Source: a virus
Virus record (IMG/VR): IMGVR_UViG_3300034418_008897
Location: 16,525 to 80,524 of that record
Strand: one strand, 5' to 3'
Length of the DNA: 64,000 bases
The translations under genes were made by a program, and so were the position numbers. Below, in pieces: positions 13,433-63,293 of the stretch (position 1 is the first letter of the stretch; each line of letters starts with the position of its first letter). The notes beneath the pieces were generated by a model. The model was not told the origin of the DNA. It worked only from the letters and a program-made list of their open reading frames with translations, and made no database searches.

Positions 13433-16400
13433 TTAATTAAATGAATAAACAAAAGACGATAATATAGCTTGTATAGTTACATAATCGTACCCTTCGTAAG
13501 TAAATTTTATTTTTATTGCTTTATCTCTAATGTCAACGCCTTTATCGTTTTTACCAGCTTCTATATAAAGATGGTCCTCTATATATTCCATATTTTGCTT
13601 TATAATACCAAAGTCAATAGTGTTAAAAGTAAAACCAGCCGGTAAAGTACCTGATATATTATTACCATTTTGATCTAAAATTTCATTGTAAAATACACCA
13701 TTTGAATCCTGAACTTTTTTTCCTATTATGTAAATTACCCCTGCAAATACAACATAACCGCCTTCTAACCTTTCTACTTCTTGTTCACTCATATCAGCAA
13801 TATTTATAACTGCATTACTAGATAAAGTAGATGTTGTTATATTCCAACCAACAGAAGGCTCTAGCTCTTGTCTTTGTTTTAATTTTTGTTCATAATCATT
13901 GTTATTACTCAAAAAGTTATCGTAATCAAAATCATTTTCTAATAAAGTATAAGTAACTCTACCAGGGAAAGCTCGGTTAGAAATAACCATTAAGCTATTT
14001 ATTACTTTTTGAACAGCAGATTTATCTACTAAAACAAATTCAAAAATAAATTGTTCTTGATTTCCATATATATAAGAATAAGGAACCTTATCAGAAAAAT
14101 GTTTCCATATACTTTCTCTATCTGCAATAGCATTAAAAGAATATAGATTATTTTCTATATTAAACATCCATAAAGGGTTCCAAGATAATTTAGATACCCA
14201 TTTTTGTAAAGTTTCATTATAATAAATAGAAGCTATTTTATTTTTATCGCAAATACTTTCATAAGTACCTATATATAAATTTTCTTCTCCTTCCCTAACT
14301 TTTCTATTGATTTCTGCTTCAGCCCTTCCTCTATTAATTTCAAATTCCCCTTCAGCCCTTTCTGCAGCATTATTTAAAAATTGATTAGCGCCAAATACTT
14401 CTGCAGATTGACTAGTATTACTAACTTGCACCTTATTATTTATGTAATCTAAAGCAGGGCCTAAAGCAGGATTATATGTTTCTGCTTTGGTTGTATCTCT
14501 TACAGTTGTATCTTTTACGGTTGTAGTTCTTACTATTTCTGTTTCCTTACAAGAACCTAACACATCAGTAGTAAATTTGCCGTTTTCTAGGTTCATATAA
14601 GAAAATACAACATCATTACGTTCTCTATCGTAGTTAGCTTTTACATAATTACGAGCTGGAGAATTGTTTATCCTCTTTTTATATTCTTTTAATACAGATT
14701 GTACAGCAAAATCACTGATAATTTCTAAGCCGTACTGGCTATTAATTCCCACAACACGCCAAATTCTGTTTTTTCTTAAATCACAACCGTATATAGCTTG
14801 ATCTGTTTTTATAATACTAAATTGCTGGTCACTACCATATTCTGTAGATATAACTTGCATTTTAGGAGCTAGTACTTCAGCGTTGTCTATAAATACCCCG
14901 CCGTCTTGTTGTGATAACATTGTTTTTTGGTTGATAGGTATCACACCAACACCTTGCTCAAATATACAATAAACATTGTTATTATGTGTAATAAGCTTGG
15001 TTATTTGACCAAATTGTCTATTGTAGTCTTTAAAATTTAATCCAGAAAAATCTAAATAACCATTTTCAAAACTACCTGATACACTCGCTTCAGAAACATA
15101 AACTCTATTACTAAAATCTAAATTAAACACAGGCGATCTATCGTTTAAAGCCACTGAGAATTTGTCGTGTATATTATCATTATAACCAAAGTTATAAGCT
15201 GAAGATTCTCTTTGCCTAGAATCTCTAATACTATTTATAGATCTAACTGGGTAAAAACTTCTACCTTGCCCATATATACTAAGTTCGGTCGCAACACTTT
15301 TATCTTCTATTCTTAAATTTACATTGTAATTATTTTCAGTTACTAATGGCATTACAAAACCCTTTTCTATTAATCCTGTAGAACGATTTCCATCAGTGTA
15401 TCCAGTAGGATCTGTAGCAATTGGGTTTTCTTGTATACCTAAACCAAGCATTATATTTTTATATATATGCGCTATATAACAATCCCCGGAATATAAACTG
15501 ACTTCAGTTAATGTATTTAAATCATCTAAAGTATATCTTTCAGTAATAGCGTAGTAGGCTTCCGTGCTTGACAAAGAATTATATTTATTTTTCCAATTAG
15601 TTTGAGTTAAAACCCCATCCATGGAATCATAAACATTAGTTAATACGCCTAAGTTAAAGCCATTAAATTGAACTTGCCATACATAATCTTGGATATCATT
15701 ACCAGTTAATCCTTGCCCATTGCCTTTACCAACGTTTGAAAAAGTATTTATATTTTTCACTCTATAAGGGTCATTTTCCAAAGGTACAACTAAGGCATTA
15801 TCCCCTTGTTTGGCTTTTATACCTATATAATCAGAATATTGAGTATTAGAGCTGAATAATTCAGAAGCAATATTTGTGCCCGTAGAGACAACATTACTAG
15901 GCCAACTTGGCTCAAAAGTTGCTGGATTTTGACTAGCAGAAGCAGCATAATAAATATTTCTATCTTCTTTAGCAGAGAATTGCCTAGCTCCAAAAGCATC
16001 TTGATCATAGCCTATATAAGATAAATTATAAGTGTTATCACTTATTAAATCTAAAGGGTTAGTAAAATTACTTTTAAAATTTTCTAAGTTTAAAACTTTT
16101 ATTGGGGTTACCTCAGCGGGATCAACACTTATACTAGGCCCAAAAGAGTAAGAAGAAATTTTTAACTTATTAAGCACAGGTGTTTGAACAATAAAGACAT
16201 TAGAAGTATAACCATTAATTTGTTTTAAGTTACTGTGGTTAGATTTTTTTCTAACATGATAAACACCAAAATTTATTGCTATCTGTAAATCTGTATTTAA
16301 AGGTGTATTAGGTGTTATATAAGGAAAAGTACTGTTAGCTTTTAATTTAGGTGCAAAATTACCGTCCTGTGTTTCCCAGTTGTCATAAGCTGTTATCCTT

Positions 16401-48859: not shown

Positions 48860-49597
48860 TTAGGAATTATATCTTTGGTTAACCCAGTTCCCTCCTTGTG
48901 GTTGAGGCTTAACTTTATGTTGAGGCTTGACCTTCTTTCTTATAGCATTTAAATTAGCTGTTGCACTTAGCCCTGCGTTCCAAGTAAAATAAGGTTTGTC
49001 TTTATAACTTGAATTTGCTATACCTGCATTGCCGTATAAATTAAAAGAAAAAGGAGATTTTTTAGGTTGATAAGACAAACGCCCATAAGTACCCATAGTA
49101 GCTTCACCTTTTGCTTCTTGTTCTTTTTTAAGTAAACCTGCAAGGGATAAATAGTACCCATAAGTCCCTTTTAAATTAGAACCGTATTTACCTATATCGA
49201 ATTTAGAGCCTAGATGTCCTTGATGAGTTAATTTTAACCCATCATTATTAAATGAAGCTCCTATTCCTAACCCCATATCATATTTTTTACGAGGATTTTC
49301 TGTTACTTCTAAACCTAGCCTACCATATAATTTATTATTAGAATCTAAGGCTAAACCTACATCTCCATAAGTACGATTACCATCTAAACTAGTAACATTA
49401 GGATTTTTTATTCTATGTGTGTACATAAAATTAGTGTTGTAATTATTATCCCCTAGATTTGAATAATAATCGTTGCCGCCTTGTGTATATACAGCAAAAT
49501 TACTATTTAAAGGCATGCCGGTTTTTTTATTCCTCCCTTGTATATCATGCAGGCCAGTACCGCCTATTTGAAATTTTTGTACGTATAGTAAAGACAT
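48860..49597 (-). CDS. Tagged protein, beta-barrel-like
   Basis: MSLLYVQKFQIGG; Gly/aromatic alternating strands (YGDVGLAL, YGRLGLEV, FSFNLYGNAG, FTWNAGLSA). Confidence 0.5.
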   Translation of the reverse strand: MSLLYVQKFQIGGTGLHDIQGRNKKTGMPLNSNFAVYTQGGNDYYSNLGDNNYNTNFMYTHRIKNPNVTSLDGNRTYGDVGLALDSNNKLYGRLGLEVTENPRKKYDMGLGIGASFNNDGLKLTHQGHLGSKFDIGKYGSNLKGTYGYYLSLAGLLKKEQEAKGEATMGTYGRLSYQPKKSPFSFNLYGNAGIANSSYKDKPYFTWNAGLSATANLNAIRKKVKPQHKVKPQPQGGNWVNQRYNS

Positions 49598-49599
49598 AG

Positions 49600-50110
49600 T
49601 GTATAAATATAAAGTTATATAGCAAATATTTCCGTAAAAGCAAAGAAAAATCCGCAGTGTAATATAGGTACTTGTAGAAAAAGCCCCCCCGGTAGTAGAG
49701 TAAAAAGAAGAAGAGTAGAAAATAGAAGTTGCAGAAAAAGAGGGGGGGGTAAGTTGAAAAATAGTGAAAGTTGGAAATAAAACAGAGAGGGAAGGGCTAG
49801 TCGTCTTGTCCCCCCGGCGGGCGCTTTGCGGGGGTTTGGTTCGTTGCTGCCGCGGCTCGTTATTGGGCGGGGGGTTACTTTCACGGTCCTGGTGATGGGG
49901 GCACTGCTTTCATCTTCGGCCTTGTTATCGTATTTAAGTTAACTTTGCTTGCTAGCGTGTCCGCTGCTGCGCTTGGCTCTCTTCTGCGTTTGGGTTCTAC
50001 TCGTCCGACCTCTCTAGGGGGTAGCCTGGTGTTGTCTTATTACACACGAGGGGGGGGGTGCCCTAGAGTTTTATTATGCCTAGATAACGGGCTTGGTACG
50101 TTATTATAAC
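49600..50110. other. Divergent strand-switch region, GC-rich; candidate genome terminus, origin or early promoter region
   Basis: Transcription flips from minus to plus; C7, G8 and G9 homopolymer tracts; abrupt change in base composition. Confidence 0.5.
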
Positions 50111-50187
50111 AACAACAACCAGAGCTGTATGGTTTTACAAGACACAATAGCTTAGTGAAAATCTTGTTTATTTAAAAAATAAAGAAA

Positions 50188-50514
50188 ATGACAACAACAA
50201 ACAAAAAAGGTTATTCTTGGGTAGATTGCCCAACTTTAACAGAAAGAATCGACAGATTAAGAGAGCAAATCAAAGCCGGAGAATTTGTGTATACAGGTAG
50301 TAGAATACACCCTACTACAAAGCATGAGATATTCCATGCTATAAAACCTAGTACAAGATTTATGATAAGATTCACTTTTAAATTTAATAGTGATGGTGAA
50401 AAGTATTGTAATTGGTTCGCTATGATCGGGTCAACAAAGGAGCAGGAACAATTTCTAAAAGAAGTTGGTCATGAAGCGTACCAGGAGTACCAGTCTAAAG
50501 AAATAGATTGGTAA
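50188..50514 (+). CDS. Early hypothetical protein
   Basis: 108 aa, A-rich leader, first gene after the switch. Confidence 0.65.
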   Translation: MTTTNKKGYSWVDCPTLTERIDRLREQIKAGEFVYTGSRIHPTTKHEIFHAIKPSTRFMIRFTFKFNSDGEKYCNWFAMIGSTKEQEQFLKEVGHEAYQEYQSKEIDW

Positions 50515-50583
50515 TATCTAAAAATCAAAGCATGTCCGTACCAGACGGGGCTGAGAAGTGCTGAAAGCCAATCTGTTATTTAC

Positions 50584-50631
50584 TAACAACCTTAGATGGG
50601 TGTAAAGGTTAAACCATCACAAAATATTATG
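50584..50631 (+). repeat. Leader pseudoknot repeat, copy 1
   Basis: AACCTT/AAGGTT crossed with GATGG/CCATC; ends 10 nt before the ATG at 50629. Confidence 0.75.
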
Positions 50632-50787
50632 GAAAGAATATTTCGGTTGCAAATTACAAGAACAGCAATCTCAAACCCTGAATGGGTTGAAATAGTAGCT
50701 GCTTCTGAAACAGAAGCACAAACTAAATACTATTCAATGAACCCAACCCACTTCATTATTTGGACTATTGATTCTTTAAATGAGTAA
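50629..50787 (+). CDS. Early hypothetical protein (probable start MERIF)
   Basis: ATG at the same offset from the repeat as in copy 2. Confidence 0.55.
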   Translation: MERIFRLQITRTAISNPEWVEIVAASETEAQTKYYSMNPTHFIIWTIDSLNE

Positions 50788-50804
50788 CTTTGTAAATTAA
50801 ATAT

Positions 50805-50852
50805 TAACAACCTTAGATGAGGGTATAGGTTAAATCATCACAAAATATTATG
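50805..50852 (+). repeat. Leader pseudoknot repeat, copy 2
   Basis: AACCT/AGGTT crossed with GATGA/TCATC; ends 10 nt before the ATG at 50850. Confidence 0.75.
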
Positions 50853-51182
50853 GAAGTAATTAATTTAACACCGCATGCTATTAAAGTAGTAGGTAAAGAT
50901 GGCGAAAGAGTTTATCAACCATCAGGATTGGTAGCTCGAGTAGAGCAATCTGTTGTAGAAACAGGTGATTATATAGATGGGTTCTCAGTGAGCCAATCTG
51001 TATTTGGAGATATAGTAAATCTCCCAGCACCTCAACCTGGGGTGTACTATCTAGTGTCAGCTATGGTTTTAGGGGCTTTGGCTGGCTCTAGAAGTGATGT
51101 AGTAGCACCTAAGACGGATGCTACGGCCATAAGAAATGAGAAAGGCCATATAGTGGCTGTTAGAGGTTTCTTAAAATATTAA
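50850..51182 (+). CDS. Conserved phage protein (INLTPH...PSG.VARV family)
   Basis: INLTPH, LPAPQPGVYYLVS and RNEKGHIVAVRGF motifs. Confidence 0.65.
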   Translation: MEVINLTPHAIKVVGKDGERVYQPSGLVARVEQSVVETGDYIDGFSVSQSVFGDIVNLPAPQPGVYYLVSAMVLGALAGSRSDVVAPKTDATAIRNEKGHIVAVRGFLKY

Positions 51183-51229
51183 AAAATTACTAATTTAAAG
51201 CTGACCTATCGGCATGACGGGGAAATTAT

Positions 51230-51502
51230 ATGGAATGCATGGAAGATATAAATGACGCATTTGCGTCAGGTTTATTGTTTTTCCCTAAAACTTCTGACGA
51301 AGAATGGGAAAGAAGAAGGATTGAGTCAGAAGAAAGACTCAAAGAGTATAAAAAGACGGAAGGGCAGGTCCGTCATATAAAAAAAGGTAACTATTGGTTA
51401 CCGATTATAATCATGGAAGTAAAAGCTTACCATGAAGTAATAATAAAAATAATTGCAACGAAAGAAGTAAAAACAGTTGCATTTTACGAAATAAAATACT
51501 AG
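51230..51502 (+). CDS. Early hypothetical protein
   Basis: 90-aa ORF in the early gene run. Confidence 0.55.
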   Translation: MECMEDINDAFASGLLFFPKTSDEEWERRRIESEERLKEYKKTEGQVRHIKKGNYWLPIIIMEVKAYHEVIIKIIATKEVKTVAFYEIKY

Positions 51503-51509
51503 TAAAAGT

Positions 51510-51719
51510 ATGGATAAATTGTATTACGTGTATTTTAACACTGGATCTCTTGCCCCCATGTGGGTTAAGAAAAACGAAAGTTTTGCTGCTAAACTGAACA
51601 GTATAGTTGGAAAAGATAAACAGAATGAAATTACTTCGGTAGAATTAATAAAAACTTCACCGAGTATAAGTAAAGAAGTTTTAGACTCATTATTTAATAA
51701 ACCATTAAACAATAATTAA
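51510..51719 (+). CDS. Early hypothetical protein
   Basis: 69-aa ORF in the early gene run. Confidence 0.55.
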   Translation: MDKLYYVYFNTGSLAPMWVKKNESFAAKLNSIVGKDKQNEITSVELIKTSPSISKEVLDSLFNKPLNNN

Positions 51720-51720
51720 G

Positions 51721-52014
51721 ATGAACAATATATCAAAACAAGAAACTGAACTAAAAGCAATAGGCTTAGATTTAAACCTAAATTACGTAAACAATAGCGT
51801 AATAATAGTGAAAGGCCATAAAATAGTAGCGCCTGAAGAATGTATAGTGCGAGCTATACAATTAAAAATAAGAGAAGGGGAATTAAAACCACAAGACGTC
51901 GAGCTATACGACAATAAGAAAAGGATAGAAATCAGACCAGATGGTATGATAAAAGAAAAATTAGAATCAAATTTTTATCAACTTAGTGCTAATTTAGCAT
52001 TTAAGTTATTCTAA
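51721..52014 (+). CDS. Stand-alone DUF3696-like protein
   Basis: RAIQLKIREGELKPQDVELY...IEIRPDG.I......FYQ resembles the C-terminus of defence-associated ABC/AAA ATPases. Confidence 0.45.
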   Translation: MNNISKQETELKAIGLDLNLNYVNNSVIIVKGHKIVAPEECIVRAIQLKIREGELKPQDVELYDNKKRIEIRPDGMIKEKLESNFYQLSANLAFKLF

Positions 52015-52031
52015 AACAAATAATTAAATAT

Positions 52032-52080
52032 TAACAACCCTAGATGATAGTATAGGTTAGATCATCACAACAACAACATG
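52032..52080 (+). repeat. Leader pseudoknot repeat, copy 3
   Basis: AACC/GGTT crossed with GATGAT/ATCATC; ends 11 nt before the ATG at 52078. Confidence 0.75.
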
Positions 52081-52605
52081 AGAGTACCAAATTATGAATT
52101 GTATTTAGGCTTGCGAAGCGAGCTAGACGGTAGAATTGCTATAGGTGGTTCTACTGCACTTGTAGTTAGAGGTGAATTACCTGCTGACTACAAACCAGGA
52201 GATCTGGACTTGTGCATTGAGCACGAGATCCAACTAAGCATTATAGATACTTACCTGACCCAAAGAGGTTGGGAAATGTCTATAGACATACCAAATGGTA
52301 ATGCCTTTACTGTTAGAAGGCAATACAAGCTGGATGGAGAGAAAGTAGATTTCTTCATCATACCTGACTTAGACCGTTGGGTAGATTACATGGACGGAAA
52401 CGTTTATGTTAAGCCCCAAGTTATATGGGCCGCGCGTGGTTATTATGCTGGCGTAGGCTCAGACAAAGCCCAAAACCAACTAGTAAAGAATGGTATGATT
52501 AGGCCATTTGTACCCAACTCAACCCCTAACTCAAAATTGACTAAGAGACAAGTAATACGCCGTATTATCGGCGATGTTAAACACTTAATTAAGAGTATAT
52601 TATGA
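52078..52605 (+). CDS. Nucleotidyltransferase-fold protein
   Basis: IGGSTAL..RG...PGDLDL...KVDFF (GS / DxD / D pattern). Confidence 0.7.
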   Translation: MRVPNYELYLGLRSELDGRIAIGGSTALVVRGELPADYKPGDLDLCIEHEIQLSIIDTYLTQRGWEMSIDIPNGNAFTVRRQYKLDGEKVDFFIIPDLDRWVDYMDGNVYVKPQVIWAARGYYAGVGSDKAQNQLVKNGMIRPFVPNSTPNSKLTKRQVIRRIIGDVKHLIKSIL

Positions 52606-52901
52606 AAAAATTAATGATGACGGTGCTACTAAAGTCAGTAGCTAATCTTTCACCTGATAAATATAAGGTGGGAGCTATCTATGTTCAAGGCTGGAGAATC
52701 AGCTTTGGATATAATACTAGTAGAGATTACGGTAGTCATGCAGAGGACATGGCTATTCGTATGTTCGAGAAGCTCTACAAGCCCAGAGCACAAAAAGGAA
52801 CTATGTATTGTACATGGTCTCCATGTTCTGTATGTGCAAAGAATCTCTTTAACCTAGGTATAAGGCCTTGGTATTTAGATCGATACACTGGCAAACTCTA
52901 A
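52602..52901 (+). CDS. Minimal cytidine/dCMP deaminase-family protein
   Basis: KVGA..., GYN, HAE and SPCSVC zinc motifs. Confidence 0.8.
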   Translation: MKKLMMTVLLKSVANLSPDKYKVGAIYVQGWRISFGYNTSRDYGSHAEDMAIRMFEKLYKPRAQKGTMYCTWSPCSVCAKNLFNLGIRPWYLDRYTGKL

Positions 52902-52963
52902 ACTCGTCTGAGCGAGTATAAATAGGCTTTAGGCTCAGAGCGTCCCACTTCGGTGGGGGTAGT
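52902..52963 (+). ncRNA. Pistol self-cleaving ribozyme
   Basis: P1 ACTCG/CGAGT; loop TCTGAG pairs with CTCAGA; ATAAATAG linker; P2 GCT/AGT; TTAGG; GCG; P3 TCCCAC-TTCG-GTGGGG; GT cleavage dinucleotide at 52959-52960. Confidence 0.9.
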
Positions 52964-52985
52964 ATTAATTTAAAATTTAAAAGTT

Positions 52986-53273
52986 ATGTTAGTAAGAGAA
53001 AAATGTGATCAAGAAATGATCAGGATTGCGGATCAAGAAATGGGATTCGCTATTAATCCCAAAAATGGTGTCTTTGCGGACACTGAACAAGAGGGACAAG
53101 ACCTAGAAGCATTATATGCTGAGGTGCAAAGAGTTAAGGAGACTTGCAGATGCTGGACTCCGAGTAATAAGGAAGGTGTTAGTTGCTACACTGAACTAGG
53201 AAAAGGCAATATCATAATAGTAGAAGATCAAGGGTATGTAGGTATCTTCTACAACAACTATTTATTCATTTAA
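52986..53273 (+). CDS. Early hypothetical protein
   Basis: 95 aa; leader TAAAATTTAAAAGTTATG shared with the next gene. Confidence 0.6.
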   Translation: MLVREKCDQEMIRIADQEMGFAINPKNGVFADTEQEGQDLEALYAEVQRVKETCRCWTPSNKEGVSCYTELGKGNIIIVEDQGYVGIFYNNYLFI

Positions 53274-53289
53274 TTAAAATTTAAAAGTT

Positions 53290-53496
53290 ATGAAAACAAG
53301 AAGACCAAGAATTAATCAAGAAACAAAAGTAGAAAGAAAGATAGAATTTTCTACTAGATTTGCAAAAGACAAAAACCCTAACTGGGATAAAAATATACGC
53401 TCTAAAGAAGGAGAGCGTAAAGTAAAAGCTAAACCAACGCCGCAAGATAAATGGGCTGAGTTTAAAGCTTTTGCAGCAACAGAATTAAATTATTAA
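53290..53496 (+). CDS. Basic hypothetical protein
   Basis: 68 aa; same leader as 52986. Confidence 0.55.
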   Translation: MKTRRPRINQETKVERKIEFSTRFAKDKNPNWDKNIRSKEGERKVKAKPTPQDKWAEFKAFAATELNY

Positions 53497-53513
53497 TTAA
53501 ATTAACAAATAAG

Positions 53514-53651
53514 ATGAAGAAAATATTATTAGAAAATGGTACTGTAAAATACGGTATACAATACTATCGTGTGTTAGAGTTAAAAGAAAATCAAGTATTA
53601 TTAATGATTAGTAAAAAACCAACTTGGGTTGATATTAAAGAATTAAACTAA
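53514..53651 (+). CDS. Small hypothetical protein (45 aa, MKKILLENG...)
   Basis: Translated by hand; below the ORF-track size cutoff. Confidence 0.45.
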   Translation: MKKILLENGTVKYGIQYYRVLELKENQVLLMISKKPTWVDIKELN

Positions 53652-53667
53652 TCAACTAACCTATCAC

Positions 53668-53724
53668 CTTAGTCTTCCTTTCTTCCTCGCCTTAGTCTTC
53701 CCTTCGTCGGAGTCTTCCCTTCGG
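53668..53724 (+). repeat. Pyrimidine-rich triple repeat AGTCTTCC(C/T)TTC
   Basis: Three copies upstream of 53798, followed by the hairpin CGTGAGAC-A-GTCTCACG. Confidence 0.6.
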
Positions 53725-53797
53725 CCTCGCGGTTTTTTGGCGTGAGACAGTCTCACGTGTAGTATATTATTTTTTTAAACTTTTAAATTTTTAGATT

Positions 53798-54280
53798 ATG
53801 TTAAAGATTAACAGACAAGCAGCATTAAAGCAGTTCAGAACTCAATCAGCGAAAGGCTTAAAATTAGAGCCAGGAACTGAGATTAGTGTTATGGAAGTAC
53901 GTGAGAACAACAACGAGGATGGTTCAGTGACTCACTCTTTAATCTGTTCAACAGATAAATCACTTGTGATTAACATCTCTTTATCTGATTACTTCAAAAT
54001 GGGAGTGGTAAACAATGGATCTCATTACACTTCAGAGGAAGGTGATGAGGACATCGAGATCTTCCAATCGTTCACTATCGAAACGGCAGAAGACCGTAAA
54101 GATAGAAACGGTGACTTAGTTTATCCTTTATATGCTTATGAAGGATGGGACGAGATGAGAGATGAAATCAGAGCAGGTAATGCTAAATTCGATTGGAATG
54201 CTCTAATTGAATCAGGATTGAAAGAAGGTATTACAGACCGTATCAGTCCATTACAAGATTATACTATCAAAATCGGATAG
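53798..54280 (+). CDS. Probably highly expressed acidic protein, possibly ssDNA-binding
   Basis: 160 aa; ATC/TTC/AAC codon preference like MCP; own terminator; function is a guess. Confidence 0.45.
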   Translation: MLKINRQAALKQFRTQSAKGLKLEPGTEISVMEVRENNNEDGSVTHSLICSTDKSLVINISLSDYFKMGVVNNGSHYTSEEGDEDIEIFQSFTIETAEDRKDRNGDLVYPLYAYEGWDEMRDEIRAGNAKFDWNALIESGLKEGITDRISPLQDYTIKIG

Positions 54281-54290
54281 TATTACACTC

Positions 54291-54330
54291 ATATGGGGTA
54301 GCATAGAAATATGTTACCCTATATTTTTTT
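54291..54330 (+). terminator. Intrinsic terminator
   Basis: ATATGGGGTAGCATA-GAAA-TATGTTACCCTATAT followed by a T run. Confidence 0.8.
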
Positions 54331-54407: not shown

Positions 54408-54644
54408 ATGGCAACAATAAAACACAACTTTAAAGGTAATTTTGAATTCCCTTTATACAATCAACACGAAATTAAAAGTATTTTAAATGATATCAATGCA
54501 GATATCAGAGAAGTAGAAGAAGATATTAATCATTATTCTCTTATAGGAGATATGGAAAATGAGATGAATTGTTTAGAAGAATCAGTTGTATTAAATTGCG
54601 TTAAGTACGACTATGAAGAATTACTTCAAGCAGCTTTAAATTAA
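54408..54644 (+). CDS. Acidic hypothetical protein
   Basis: 78-aa ORF. Confidence 0.55.
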   Translation: MATIKHNFKGNFEFPLYNQHEIKSILNDINADIREVEEDINHYSLIGDMENEMNCLEESVVLNCVKYDYEELLQAALN

Positions 54645-54651
54645 TTATGTT

Positions 54652-54816
54652 ATGAAAAATTTTTTTAAAAGTGCTTTTGCATTGTGCCTATATGTTATTA
54701 TAGGCTCTTTGCTATTAGCGTATAGGTTTTCAGATAGTAGTTTAGCTGTAGAGATATTTACAGTAATAGCTATAGTATATTTAATATTGCTACCTAGTTG
54801 TAGCACAAAAAATTAA
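54652..54816 (+). CDS. Small membrane protein (54 aa, two hydrophobic segments)
   Basis: Translated by hand: MKNFFKSAFALCLYVIIGSLLLAY... Confidence 0.45.
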   Translation: MKNFFKSAFALCLYVIIGSLLLAYRFSDSSLAVEIFTVIAIVYLILLPSCSTKN

Positions 54817-54822
54817 AAGATT

Positions 54823-55038
54823 ATGTTAGAATTAATTATATCAATAGGTTACTTCTTAGGTATAGGTTATACTATAGAAGATTACAGTAGTGTTAACGGT
54901 AATTATGTAAATGATTTTAAATCTAGACTAGGTTTAGTTATATACATTTCATTTGTATTTTTATATTCACCTGTGTTTTTATTAATAGATTTAGGTAGAT
55001 TATTATATAAATTAAACAGTAAAGAAGATGACAAATAG
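54823..55038 (+). CDS. Small membrane protein
   Basis: Two hydrophobic segments. Confidence 0.55.
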   Translation: MLELIISIGYFLGIGYTIEDYSSVNGNYVNDFKSRLGLVIYISFVFLYSPVFLLIDLGRLLYKLNSKEDDK

Positions 55039-58792: not shown

Positions 58793-58866
58793 GCTCCTGT
58801 AGCTCAGTTGGTTAGAGCACCTGACTCATAATCAGGTGGTCCTAGGTTCGAGCCCTAGCAGGAGCA
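58793..58866 (+). tRNA. tRNA with CAU anticodon, probably Ile2 (lysidine type); elongator Met not excluded
   Basis: GCTCCTG/CAGGAGC acceptor; CCTGA-CTCATAA-TCAGG anticodon arm; CTAGG-TTCGAGC-CCTAG T arm; no encoded CCA. Confidence 0.9.
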
Positions 58867-58882
58867 CTTAAATATTTAAATT

Positions 58883-63167: not shown

Positions 63168-63293
63168 AGTCAGGTGGCGGAATTGGTAGACGCATGAATA
63201 AAGGTTAATAGTAAAGATAACGAAGAGTAACCTTGAGATACCCGTAAAGTCAGCTCATAAGTTATCATATAGGTTCGAATCCTGTCCTGACTA
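63168..63293 (+). ncRNA. tRNA-like RNA with Leu-type D arm and no canonical anticodon arm
   Basis: AGTCAGG/CCTGACT acceptor; TGGCGGAATTGGTAGACGC D arm; ATAGG-TTCGAAT-CCTGT T arm; 75-nt branched insert between the D and T arms. Confidence 0.75.

Follow-up and report, generated by a model that had tools for sequence, protein, structure and literature searches.

The leader of phage T4 gene 32 contains a single pseudoknot, which lies further from the start codon than the motif described here and nucleates the binding of gp32, and the early transcript of T7 carries RNase III sites in the form of long irregular hairpins between its early genes. An N4 early promoter is a single hairpin, its stem 5-7 bp and its loop 3 nt long, which extrudes from supercoiled DNA. 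In T4-type phages, the PeSL cassettes that Arbiol and colleagues are said to have described in 2010 reportedly consist of a sigma-70 early promoter joined to a simple stem-loop. The N4 early promoters P1-P3 are read by an injected virion RNA polymerase (RNAP) (PMC4496689). In the Thermus phage P23-45, the virion RNAP gp96, a two-barrel enzyme related to those of crAss-like phages, uses a conserved AT-rich pre-early promoter, which was defined by mapped transcription starts and chromatin immunoprecipitation sequencing (ChIP-seq) and is not described as structured (PMC10770324). The rightward arm of phi14:2 constitutes its early class and is transcribed by the injected virion RNAP gp66, which in vitro requires its DNA to be single-stranded or denatured; the sequences upstream of the early transcripts yielded no common motif. 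Within the literature searchable here, no early promoter has been defined for a crAss-like virion RNAP. Here we describe a 36-nt motif that precedes three early genes in a 64,000-nt stretch of viral DNA (the window), which comprises bases 16525-80524 of the 80.5-kb IMG/VR contig IMGVR_UViG_3300034418_008897, rated 65% complete.

A repeated motif precedes early genes of a crAss-like phage

Judged by its genes, the window derives from a deep-branching, uncultured, freshwater crAss-like phage. It encodes the crassvirus muzzle protein (PF25731, E 1.5e-33) as well as a crAss-type portal and large terminase (phrog_6547, phrog_6681), and its DNA is present in freshwater metagenomes. The nearest deposited phages are Crassvirales with a terminase identity of only 22-35%, so that there is no cultured system. 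The block of virion genes runs leftward (151-49597) and small ORFan genes run rightward from 50188, the two arms diverging from a 450-nt GC-rich non-coding strand-switch region. A Shine-Dalgarno (SD)-like tetramer is found at 0 of 53 open reading frames (ORFs) of the window, whose upstream regions are A/U-rich with an A at position -3 in 42 of the 53. SD-less, Kozak-like initiation has been described for Bacteroidota, and the upstream regions of the window match that pattern.

A 39-nt pattern occurs exactly three times in the window, always on the + strand (50584-50622, 50805-50843 and 52032-52070), where none is expected by chance (100 shuffles). These are the copies that a sequence-only reading of the window had reported at 50584, 50805 and 52032. 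No further copy was found in the rest of the 80.5-kb contig. The 36-nt cores, the leaders behind them and the genes that they precede are as follows.

50584..50619, + strand: copy 1, allele v1; stem 1 of 6 bp (AACCTT/AAGGTT) and stem 2 of 5 bp (GATGG/CCATC)
50620..50631, + strand: leader caaaatatt (9 nt, G-free) and ATG of the 52-aa ORFan gene
50629-50787, + strand: 52-aa ORFan gene behind copy 1
50805..50840, + strand: copy 2, allele v2; stem 1 of 5 bp and stem 2 of 5 bp (GATGA/TCATC)
50841..50852, + strand: leader caaaatatt (9 nt) and ATG of the 110-aa gene
50850-51182, + strand: 110-aa gene behind copy 2 (phrog_30542, phrog_21731)
52032..52067, + strand: copy 3, allele v3; stem 1 of 4 bp and stem 2 of 6 bp (GATGAT/ATCATC)
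52068..52080, + strand: leader caacaacaac (10 nt) and ATG of the 175-aa gene
52078-52605, + strand: 175-aa gene behind copy 3

The three genes are unrelated ORFans without a common metabolic theme; homologues of the 175-aa protein exist at 48-61% identity. A scan with Rfam 15 gave no match at the motif at the gathering score and none at E<=5 with permissive filters, in agreement with the initial impression that the family was not a recognised one. The motif is a real, conserved cis element without an Rfam family.

The core is conserved between lineages and keeps a fixed distance to the start codon

A scan of the JGI metagenomes for the motif yielded five true loci (L144, L147, L148, L149 and L150), of which L147 lies on the same contig as G001, a related IMG/VR contig also labelled L143, which carries one copy of the motif and encodes a terminase 78% identical to that of the window phage. 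A second, diverged copy in L144 was found with a sequence-only model. Two further hits of the metagenome scan, L145 and L146, were rejected as chance look-alikes, being 52% GC, inside an ORF and devoid of stem 2. A pattern scan of IMG/VR returned 118 loci, all of them single chance matches; deposited phages, 185,579 species genomes and four more IMG/VR contigs of relatives contained no copy, and IMG/VR protein-guided searches with early genes and one cargo gene gave no usable relatives. The motif family is known only from a few contigs of uncultured freshwater phages, which limits the comparative power.

Across nine distinct contexts in five lineages (the window and four others), the 36-nt core exists in only four alleles. 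Allele v1 is identical in L144, where it precedes a different gene, v2 is identical in L143 and L149, and v3 is identical in L150, so that lineages with 65-83% DNA identity in their genes share 100% identical alleles. Because 36 matches in 36 positions would arise by chance with a probability near 3e-4 at ~80% DNA identity, this comparison suggests that the core is under strong selection or exchanged between phages. Its borders are sharp, conservation beginning at TAACAACC and stopping at CATCA. The variable positions gather at the inner ends of both stems and in the inter-stem loop; four core pairs per stem are invariant, as are most of the loop bases.

In eight contexts 9 nt separate the end of the core from the ATG, in the ninth 10 nt, and this spacing holds although leaders and genes differ between contexts. 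The motif is always in the same orientation as the downstream gene. Measured from the end of stem 2, the copies in the window lie 10, 10 and 11 nt upstream of the ATGs at 50629, 50850 and 52078, just as the sequence-only reading had it, and the tie of the element to start codons that it described gains from the spacing being fixed in 9/9 contexts. The leaders differ by lineage (caaaatatt or caacaacaac; ttatacacc; cattacgct) and are nearly G-free. Since several lineages also have a similar leader, TTAYACRCY-ATG, before their first leftward gene (49585-49600, - strand, in the window), the leader represents a separate start-region module. Motif-led starts form a distinct class, because ordinary genes have A/U-rich upstream regions and no SD sequence.

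Several side observations concern these start regions. The first leftward and the first rightward genes use the same 9-nt leader type in L143, L144, L149 and L150. In L150 both leaders form an 11-nt perfect inverted repeat, CATAGCGTAAT / ATTACGCTATG, which takes in the two start codons and encloses the strand-switch region between its arms. An A/U-rich start region, AAAATTTAAAAGTTATG, is common to three other early genes (52972-52992, 53276-53296 and 54809-54829, + strand) and follows a structured module termed element C (see below) in L150, constituting a second, unstructured start-region class. Other functions considered for the motif at the start region were discarded: as an insulator keeping the start region unpaired, the native motif performed no better than the shuffled motif in eight contexts; for a decoy-start switch, in which the 3′ arm of stem 2 would pair with the real start codon, inspection revealed no consistent complementarity across contexts; and a mini-ORF within the motif (ATG NNN GTA TAG in v2 and v3) is open into the gene in v1 and so is not conserved.

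Two crossing helices can form in all four alleles

In each of the four alleles the two helices are interleaved in the order 5′ arm 1, 5′ arm 2, 3′ arm 1, 3′ arm 2, and the crossing stems AACC/GGTT and GATG/CATC were present in every copy, as first read. Stem 1 comprises 6, 5, 4 and 5 bp and stem 2 comprises 5, 5, 6 and 6 bp in the four alleles. The best stacking sum of crossing helices was -14.5 to -17.3 kcal/mol, compared with -8.9 to -10.6 kcal/mol in dinucleotide shuffles (sd ~2.1); the p values were 0.003-0.018 for all four alleles, which are not independent of each other. L1 of 1-3 nt is sufficient to cross the groove. On these calculations, the potential to form a pseudoknot is probably real.

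The series GATGG/CCATC, GATGA/TCATC and GATGAT/ATCATC described for stem 2 was reproduced in the window. Among the four alleles, one pair of stem 2 is doubly changed (G:C to A:U), the sixth stem 2 pair of copy 3 is a one-sided gain (G-A to U-A), and at the outer end of stem 1 one A-U is changed to G-U, which pairs only on the sense strand. Stem 1 shrinks from 6 to 5 to 4 bp in the window copies, its fifth pair being broken (C-A) in copy 3. When folded as single-stranded DNA (ssDNA), the hairpins reached only -1.8 to -3.2 kcal/mol on either strand, no better than shuffles. An alternative helix (core positions 9/29), compensatory in three alleles, was rejected, as it is G-U in the L144 allele and competes with stem 1.

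The motif is interchanged with other structured leaders

In every comparison between relatives, genes, 5′ flanks and leaders were recombined around the core, and the same allele stands before different genes while the same gene stands behind different alleles or elements. The proteins of L148 are 96-100% identical to those of the window, yet its sequence differs up to the 5′ edge of copy 1. The 175-aa gene is led by v3 in the window, by element C and v1 in L144 and by an element that we call B in L143, where its homologue is fused to a deaminase gene. In L143, L144, L149 and L150 (4 of the 5 lineages), the motif closes the strand-switch region and the first early gene follows directly. The first early gene of the window (50188-50514) is homologous to those of L144, L149 and L150 (29-36% identity), and that of L143, also directly behind the motif, is unrelated to the window's. 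In the window phage, the place of the motif before the first early gene is occupied by the first of two further elements.

50105..50166, + strand: TATAACAACAACAACC remnant and element B, with two hairpins (AACCA/TGGTT and CAAGA/TCTTG)
50529..50563, + strand: element C, a conserved structured module just upstream of copy 1 (AGCATGTCCGT...GAGAAGTGCTG)

Element B is also found at 10857-10915 of L143 and in L148, and its hairpins are compensatory between the window and L143 (CAAGA/TCTTG to CAAGG/CCTTG, and AACCA/TGGTT to CCCA/TGGG). Its loops measure 8 and 19 nt, which we judge too large to extrude from duplex DNA, arguing from the ssDNA hairpin energies of the motif. Both loops are invariant (GAGCTGT and CACAATAGCTTAGTGAAA) and could kiss through AGCU. 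Element C is present in the window, L143 (12188-12222), L144 and L150, with or without the motif downstream, and had no Rfam match. The first four early genes of L143 each have a different structured upstream element. Interchange of the motif with other structured, covarying leaders counts for a role in RNA. As a separate observation, L143 contains a 630-nt GC-rich, ORF-free stretch in its early arm (15090-15720) without an Rfam match at E<=1, which may be a large structured RNA or an intron.

A pistol ribozyme (RF02679; 52902-52964, + strand, 74.3 bits) is the sole Rfam match within 49500-53000. A 99-aa deaminase-like gene precedes it, and the ATG of the small gene that comes next is 22 nt further on. 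In L143, a sub-threshold match to the RAGATH-1 hammerhead (14117-14201; 30 bits, E 0.056) lies between early genes, and the words CTGATGAG...CGAAAC are also found at 13930-14005. Because self-cleaving ribozymes occupy neighbouring junctions, the early intergenic RNA is structured and processed.

An RNA leader and its alternatives

We consider an RNA leader pseudoknot that sets translation initiation to be the best reading of the motif, though we hold it tentatively and with somewhat less than even confidence. The 36-nt core would be transcribed in the early mRNAs and would fold into a compact H-type pseudoknot with stem 1 AACC(U)/(A)GGUU, stem 2 GAUGR/YCAUC and a short, A-rich third loop. The 3′ edge of the knot would lie 10-11 nt upstream of the AUG, that is, at the upstream edge of the 30S footprint, and would be followed by a G-poor, unstructured leader of 9-10 nt. 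Such a knot might set the translation efficiency of the first early genes in a phage and host without SD pairing, either by docking or positioning the small ribosomal subunit or by serving as the operator at which a repressor turns the early genes off. The conserved core, its constant distance to the ATG, its sense orientation, the above-chance folding potential and the exchange with other structured leaders are shown, whereas the presence of the motif in RNA, its folding and its action on translation are inferred. Allelic differences that keep or add stem 2 pairs and the sense-strand G-U of stem 1 support the RNA reading, as do the rigid spacing to the AUG and the ribozymes at neighbouring junctions, and the weakness of the ssDNA hairpins counts for RNA over folded DNA.

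A number of results weigh against this reading. The nested RNA folds are no better than those of shuffles (z -0.7 to +0.4), shuffling the motif leaves the predicted accessibility of the start region unchanged, and an L3 of 2-3 nt over a stem 1 of 4-6 bp with an inter-stem loop of 5-6 nt is atypical of H-type knots; such short loops are sterically possible but atypical for the classical form. Stem 1 exhibits no covariation and loses pairing at two positions, and 139 of 500 column shuffles attained the pair count observed in the four alleles. The pseudoknot claim, with its compensatory changes, is accordingly overstated although not refuted: the double change in stem 2 stands, whereas equal counts come from shuffling and stem 1 contributes none. 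The loops and the 5′ flank are conserved as well as the stems, a pattern which suits sequence recognition by a protein, RNAP included. RNA contigs from four freshwater metatranscriptomes, compared over 5 kb, covered only 53748-54317 and 54429-54580, and no promoter was identified upstream of the motif. Finally, the motif is the sole non-low-complexity repeat of the 14.5-kb early arm and occurs in 1-3 copies within the first 2.5 kb; as the only repeat of the arm, at its head and before the first gene, it has the layout expected of an early promoter.

The motif might thus be the early promoter of the clade, read by a crAss-like RNAP carried in the virion, with transcription starting at or just after the core, mRNA leaders of at most 10 nt, and inverted repeats that are either incidental or recognised in ssDNA. 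We regard this as a serious possibility; the sequence-only reading had named it as an alternative, and it proves nearly as likely as the RNA leader. The motif runs in the direction of the genes and does not occur in the other 66 kb, its short fixed distance to the ATG is typical of leaderless or short-leader promoters, and its alleles stay 100% identical across diverged lineages in loops as in stems; the copies that directly precede the first early gene in L143, L144, L149 and L150 stand where a promoter would. The virion RNAP of phi14:2, which transcribes the early arm and in vitro requires single-stranded or denatured DNA, counts for it, and the motif used by the virion RNAP of P23-45 upstream of pre-early genes lends it precedent. 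A plain duplex promoter, on the other hand, leaves the crossing inverted repeats (p ~0.01) and the pairing-preserving changes unexplained. A promoter recognised as a folded single strand, in the form of the knot rather than a simple hairpin, would agree with the single-strand preference of the phi14:2 enzyme but is unlikely in our view, and the part of the original alternative that invoked extruded DNA of the N4 type is unlikely as well, because that type needs a short loop, whereas the loops here are 11-14 nt and the ssDNA hairpins are marginal at the energies given above. Nor does the motif head every unit: the first early gene of the window has element B in its stead, and the next three genes of L143 carry three other unrelated structured elements. 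No virion RNAP gene was confirmed on the 65%-complete contig. A consensus scan for -35/-10 hexamers listed no sigma-70-like site at any copy, and inspection found no Bacteroidota-type pair (-33 TTTG and -7 TAnnTTTG) in or adjoining the core. Sequence alone cannot separate an action in RNA from a role as early promoter.

Other explanations have less in their favour. Were the motif an element for the processing or stability of a polycistronic early transcript, an RNase of the host or phage might act on it, or it could be a protective knot at the 5′ end or a new small self-cleaving ribozyme, and mRNA 5′ ends would lie ~10 nt before each start codon, as with RNase III in T7. The pistol ribozyme and the sub-threshold hammerhead-like match of L143 at other early-arm junctions agree with this, as do the many invariant loop nucleotides in a compact fold and the lack of a + strand terminator in 50100-53700, which fits a long transcript in need of processing; moreover, Weinberg and colleagues reportedly found twister-sister, pistol and hatchet in 2015 as conserved motifs near known ribozymes. 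The stems are, however, too short for RNase III, and we consider such an element improbable; that the motif is a new, unusually small ribozyme trimming the early mRNAs 10 nt before their start codons is less probable still, as 36 nt is smaller than any known self-cleaving class and no Rfam ribozyme matched at E<=5. A functionless repeat, that is, a recombination hot spot or cassette junction spread by homologous exchange with the inverted repeats as a by-product, would account for the recombination of genes, flanks and leaders around the core and for the divergence of L148 up to the edge of copy 1 between near-identical proteins. We give this explanation little credence: the perfect conservation of three to four alleles, the strict orientation and an ATG always 9-10 nt away speak for selection acting on the motif itself, and a core of 36 nt that differs between alleles would serve homologous recombination poorly. 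A small metabolite-binding pseudoknot riboswitch, which the sequence-only reading had also listed, is hardly tenable. It would suit the size of 34-36 nt, the pseudoknot topology and the start-codon-adjacent position, all of which resemble preQ1-I, but the Rfam search at E<=5, which included the preQ1 riboswitches, matched none at the motif, the ORFan genes downstream share no metabolic theme, and the same gene has other leaders in relatives.

Other features of the locus

The transcribed region 53748-54317 contains a 160-aa gene (53798-54280), which is covered by RNA contigs of 450-562 nt from all four metatranscriptomes, whereas the contig at 54429-54580 (153 nt) came from one metatranscriptome run. 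A hairpin (53740-53759) flanks the gene region on one side and a strong terminator (54291-54324) on the other. The 160-aa gene (region 53655-54330, + strand) is preceded by three CCTTAGTCTTCC-type repeats and has homologues in L143, L144 and L149, and AGTCTTCCC is also found upstream in L143.

The strand-switch region (49600-50100) is first purine-rich and then A-poor and G/T-rich with long runs of G and C. Several of its blocks are conserved in L143, L144, L149 and L150, among them a terminator-like CCCCGG...GCGGGGTTTTG hairpin on the + strand. The region could be the physical end of the genome or else an early non-coding RNA of the kind that phi14:2 has.

Upstream of the window, the contig contains an ORF of at least 2292 aa that is open at the contig end and carries a DFDTD motif (G000:C1:1-6876, - strand; L151). 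It gave weak helicase/ATPase matches at residues 1450-1790 and no match to solved structures or RNAP families, and is not confirmed as a virion RNAP. Within the window, an Rfam tRNA match of 126 nt (63168-63293, + strand, 36.2 bits), not called by ARAGORN, may represent either an insertion-bearing tRNA or a tRNA-like RNA; an ordinary tRNA-Met is located at 58793-58867.

Comparison with known systems

The launch of infection by crAss-like phages is an open question, in that an injected polymerase transcribes the early arm and its promoter in phi14:2 is undefined, and the choice of start codons by SD-less Bacteroidota-type ribosomes on polycistronic phage RNA is poorly understood. At the start of early genes, the motif provides a signal that is short, has sharp borders and is under strong selection. 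Its natural alleles amount to ready-made stem mutants, and either outcome, a structured translation element or a start signal for the polymerase, would be informative, although its value is limited by its confinement to a handful of contigs from uncultured freshwater phages that have no known host.

Compared with the RNase III sites of T7, which are also structured intergenic elements in a polycistronic early transcript, the window motif is a 36-nt candidate knot with stems too short for that enzyme. It resembles the PeSL cassettes as a repeated module before small early ORFans and likewise lies at points where genes were swapped between related phages, and differs from them in that no recognisable sigma-70-like or Bacteroidota-type promoter is part of it. 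With the leader of T4 gene 32 it shares the form of a small H-type pseudoknot 5′ of an unstructured phage mRNA leader and a proposed role in translation initiation; here, however, there are several copies before unrelated genes, 10 nt from an SD-less AUG, with no known binding partner.

The likeness to P23-45 is that the first genes are preceded by a strongly conserved motif private to the phage, although the starts of that phage have been mapped and the window motif is known from its sequence. In comparison with N4, the inverted repeats are two interleaved ones of 4-6 bp with loops of 11-14 nt in place of a short-loop hairpin, the sequences are not similar, the polymerase belongs to another family, and the motif comes without a mapped transcription start. 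The layout nevertheless recalls P1-P3: up to three co-oriented copies, which in the window fall within 1.5 kb near the start of the + arm, stand at the head of the early arm, each with inverted repeats and invariant bases, in a phage that by kinship would inject its own RNAP, as N4 does.

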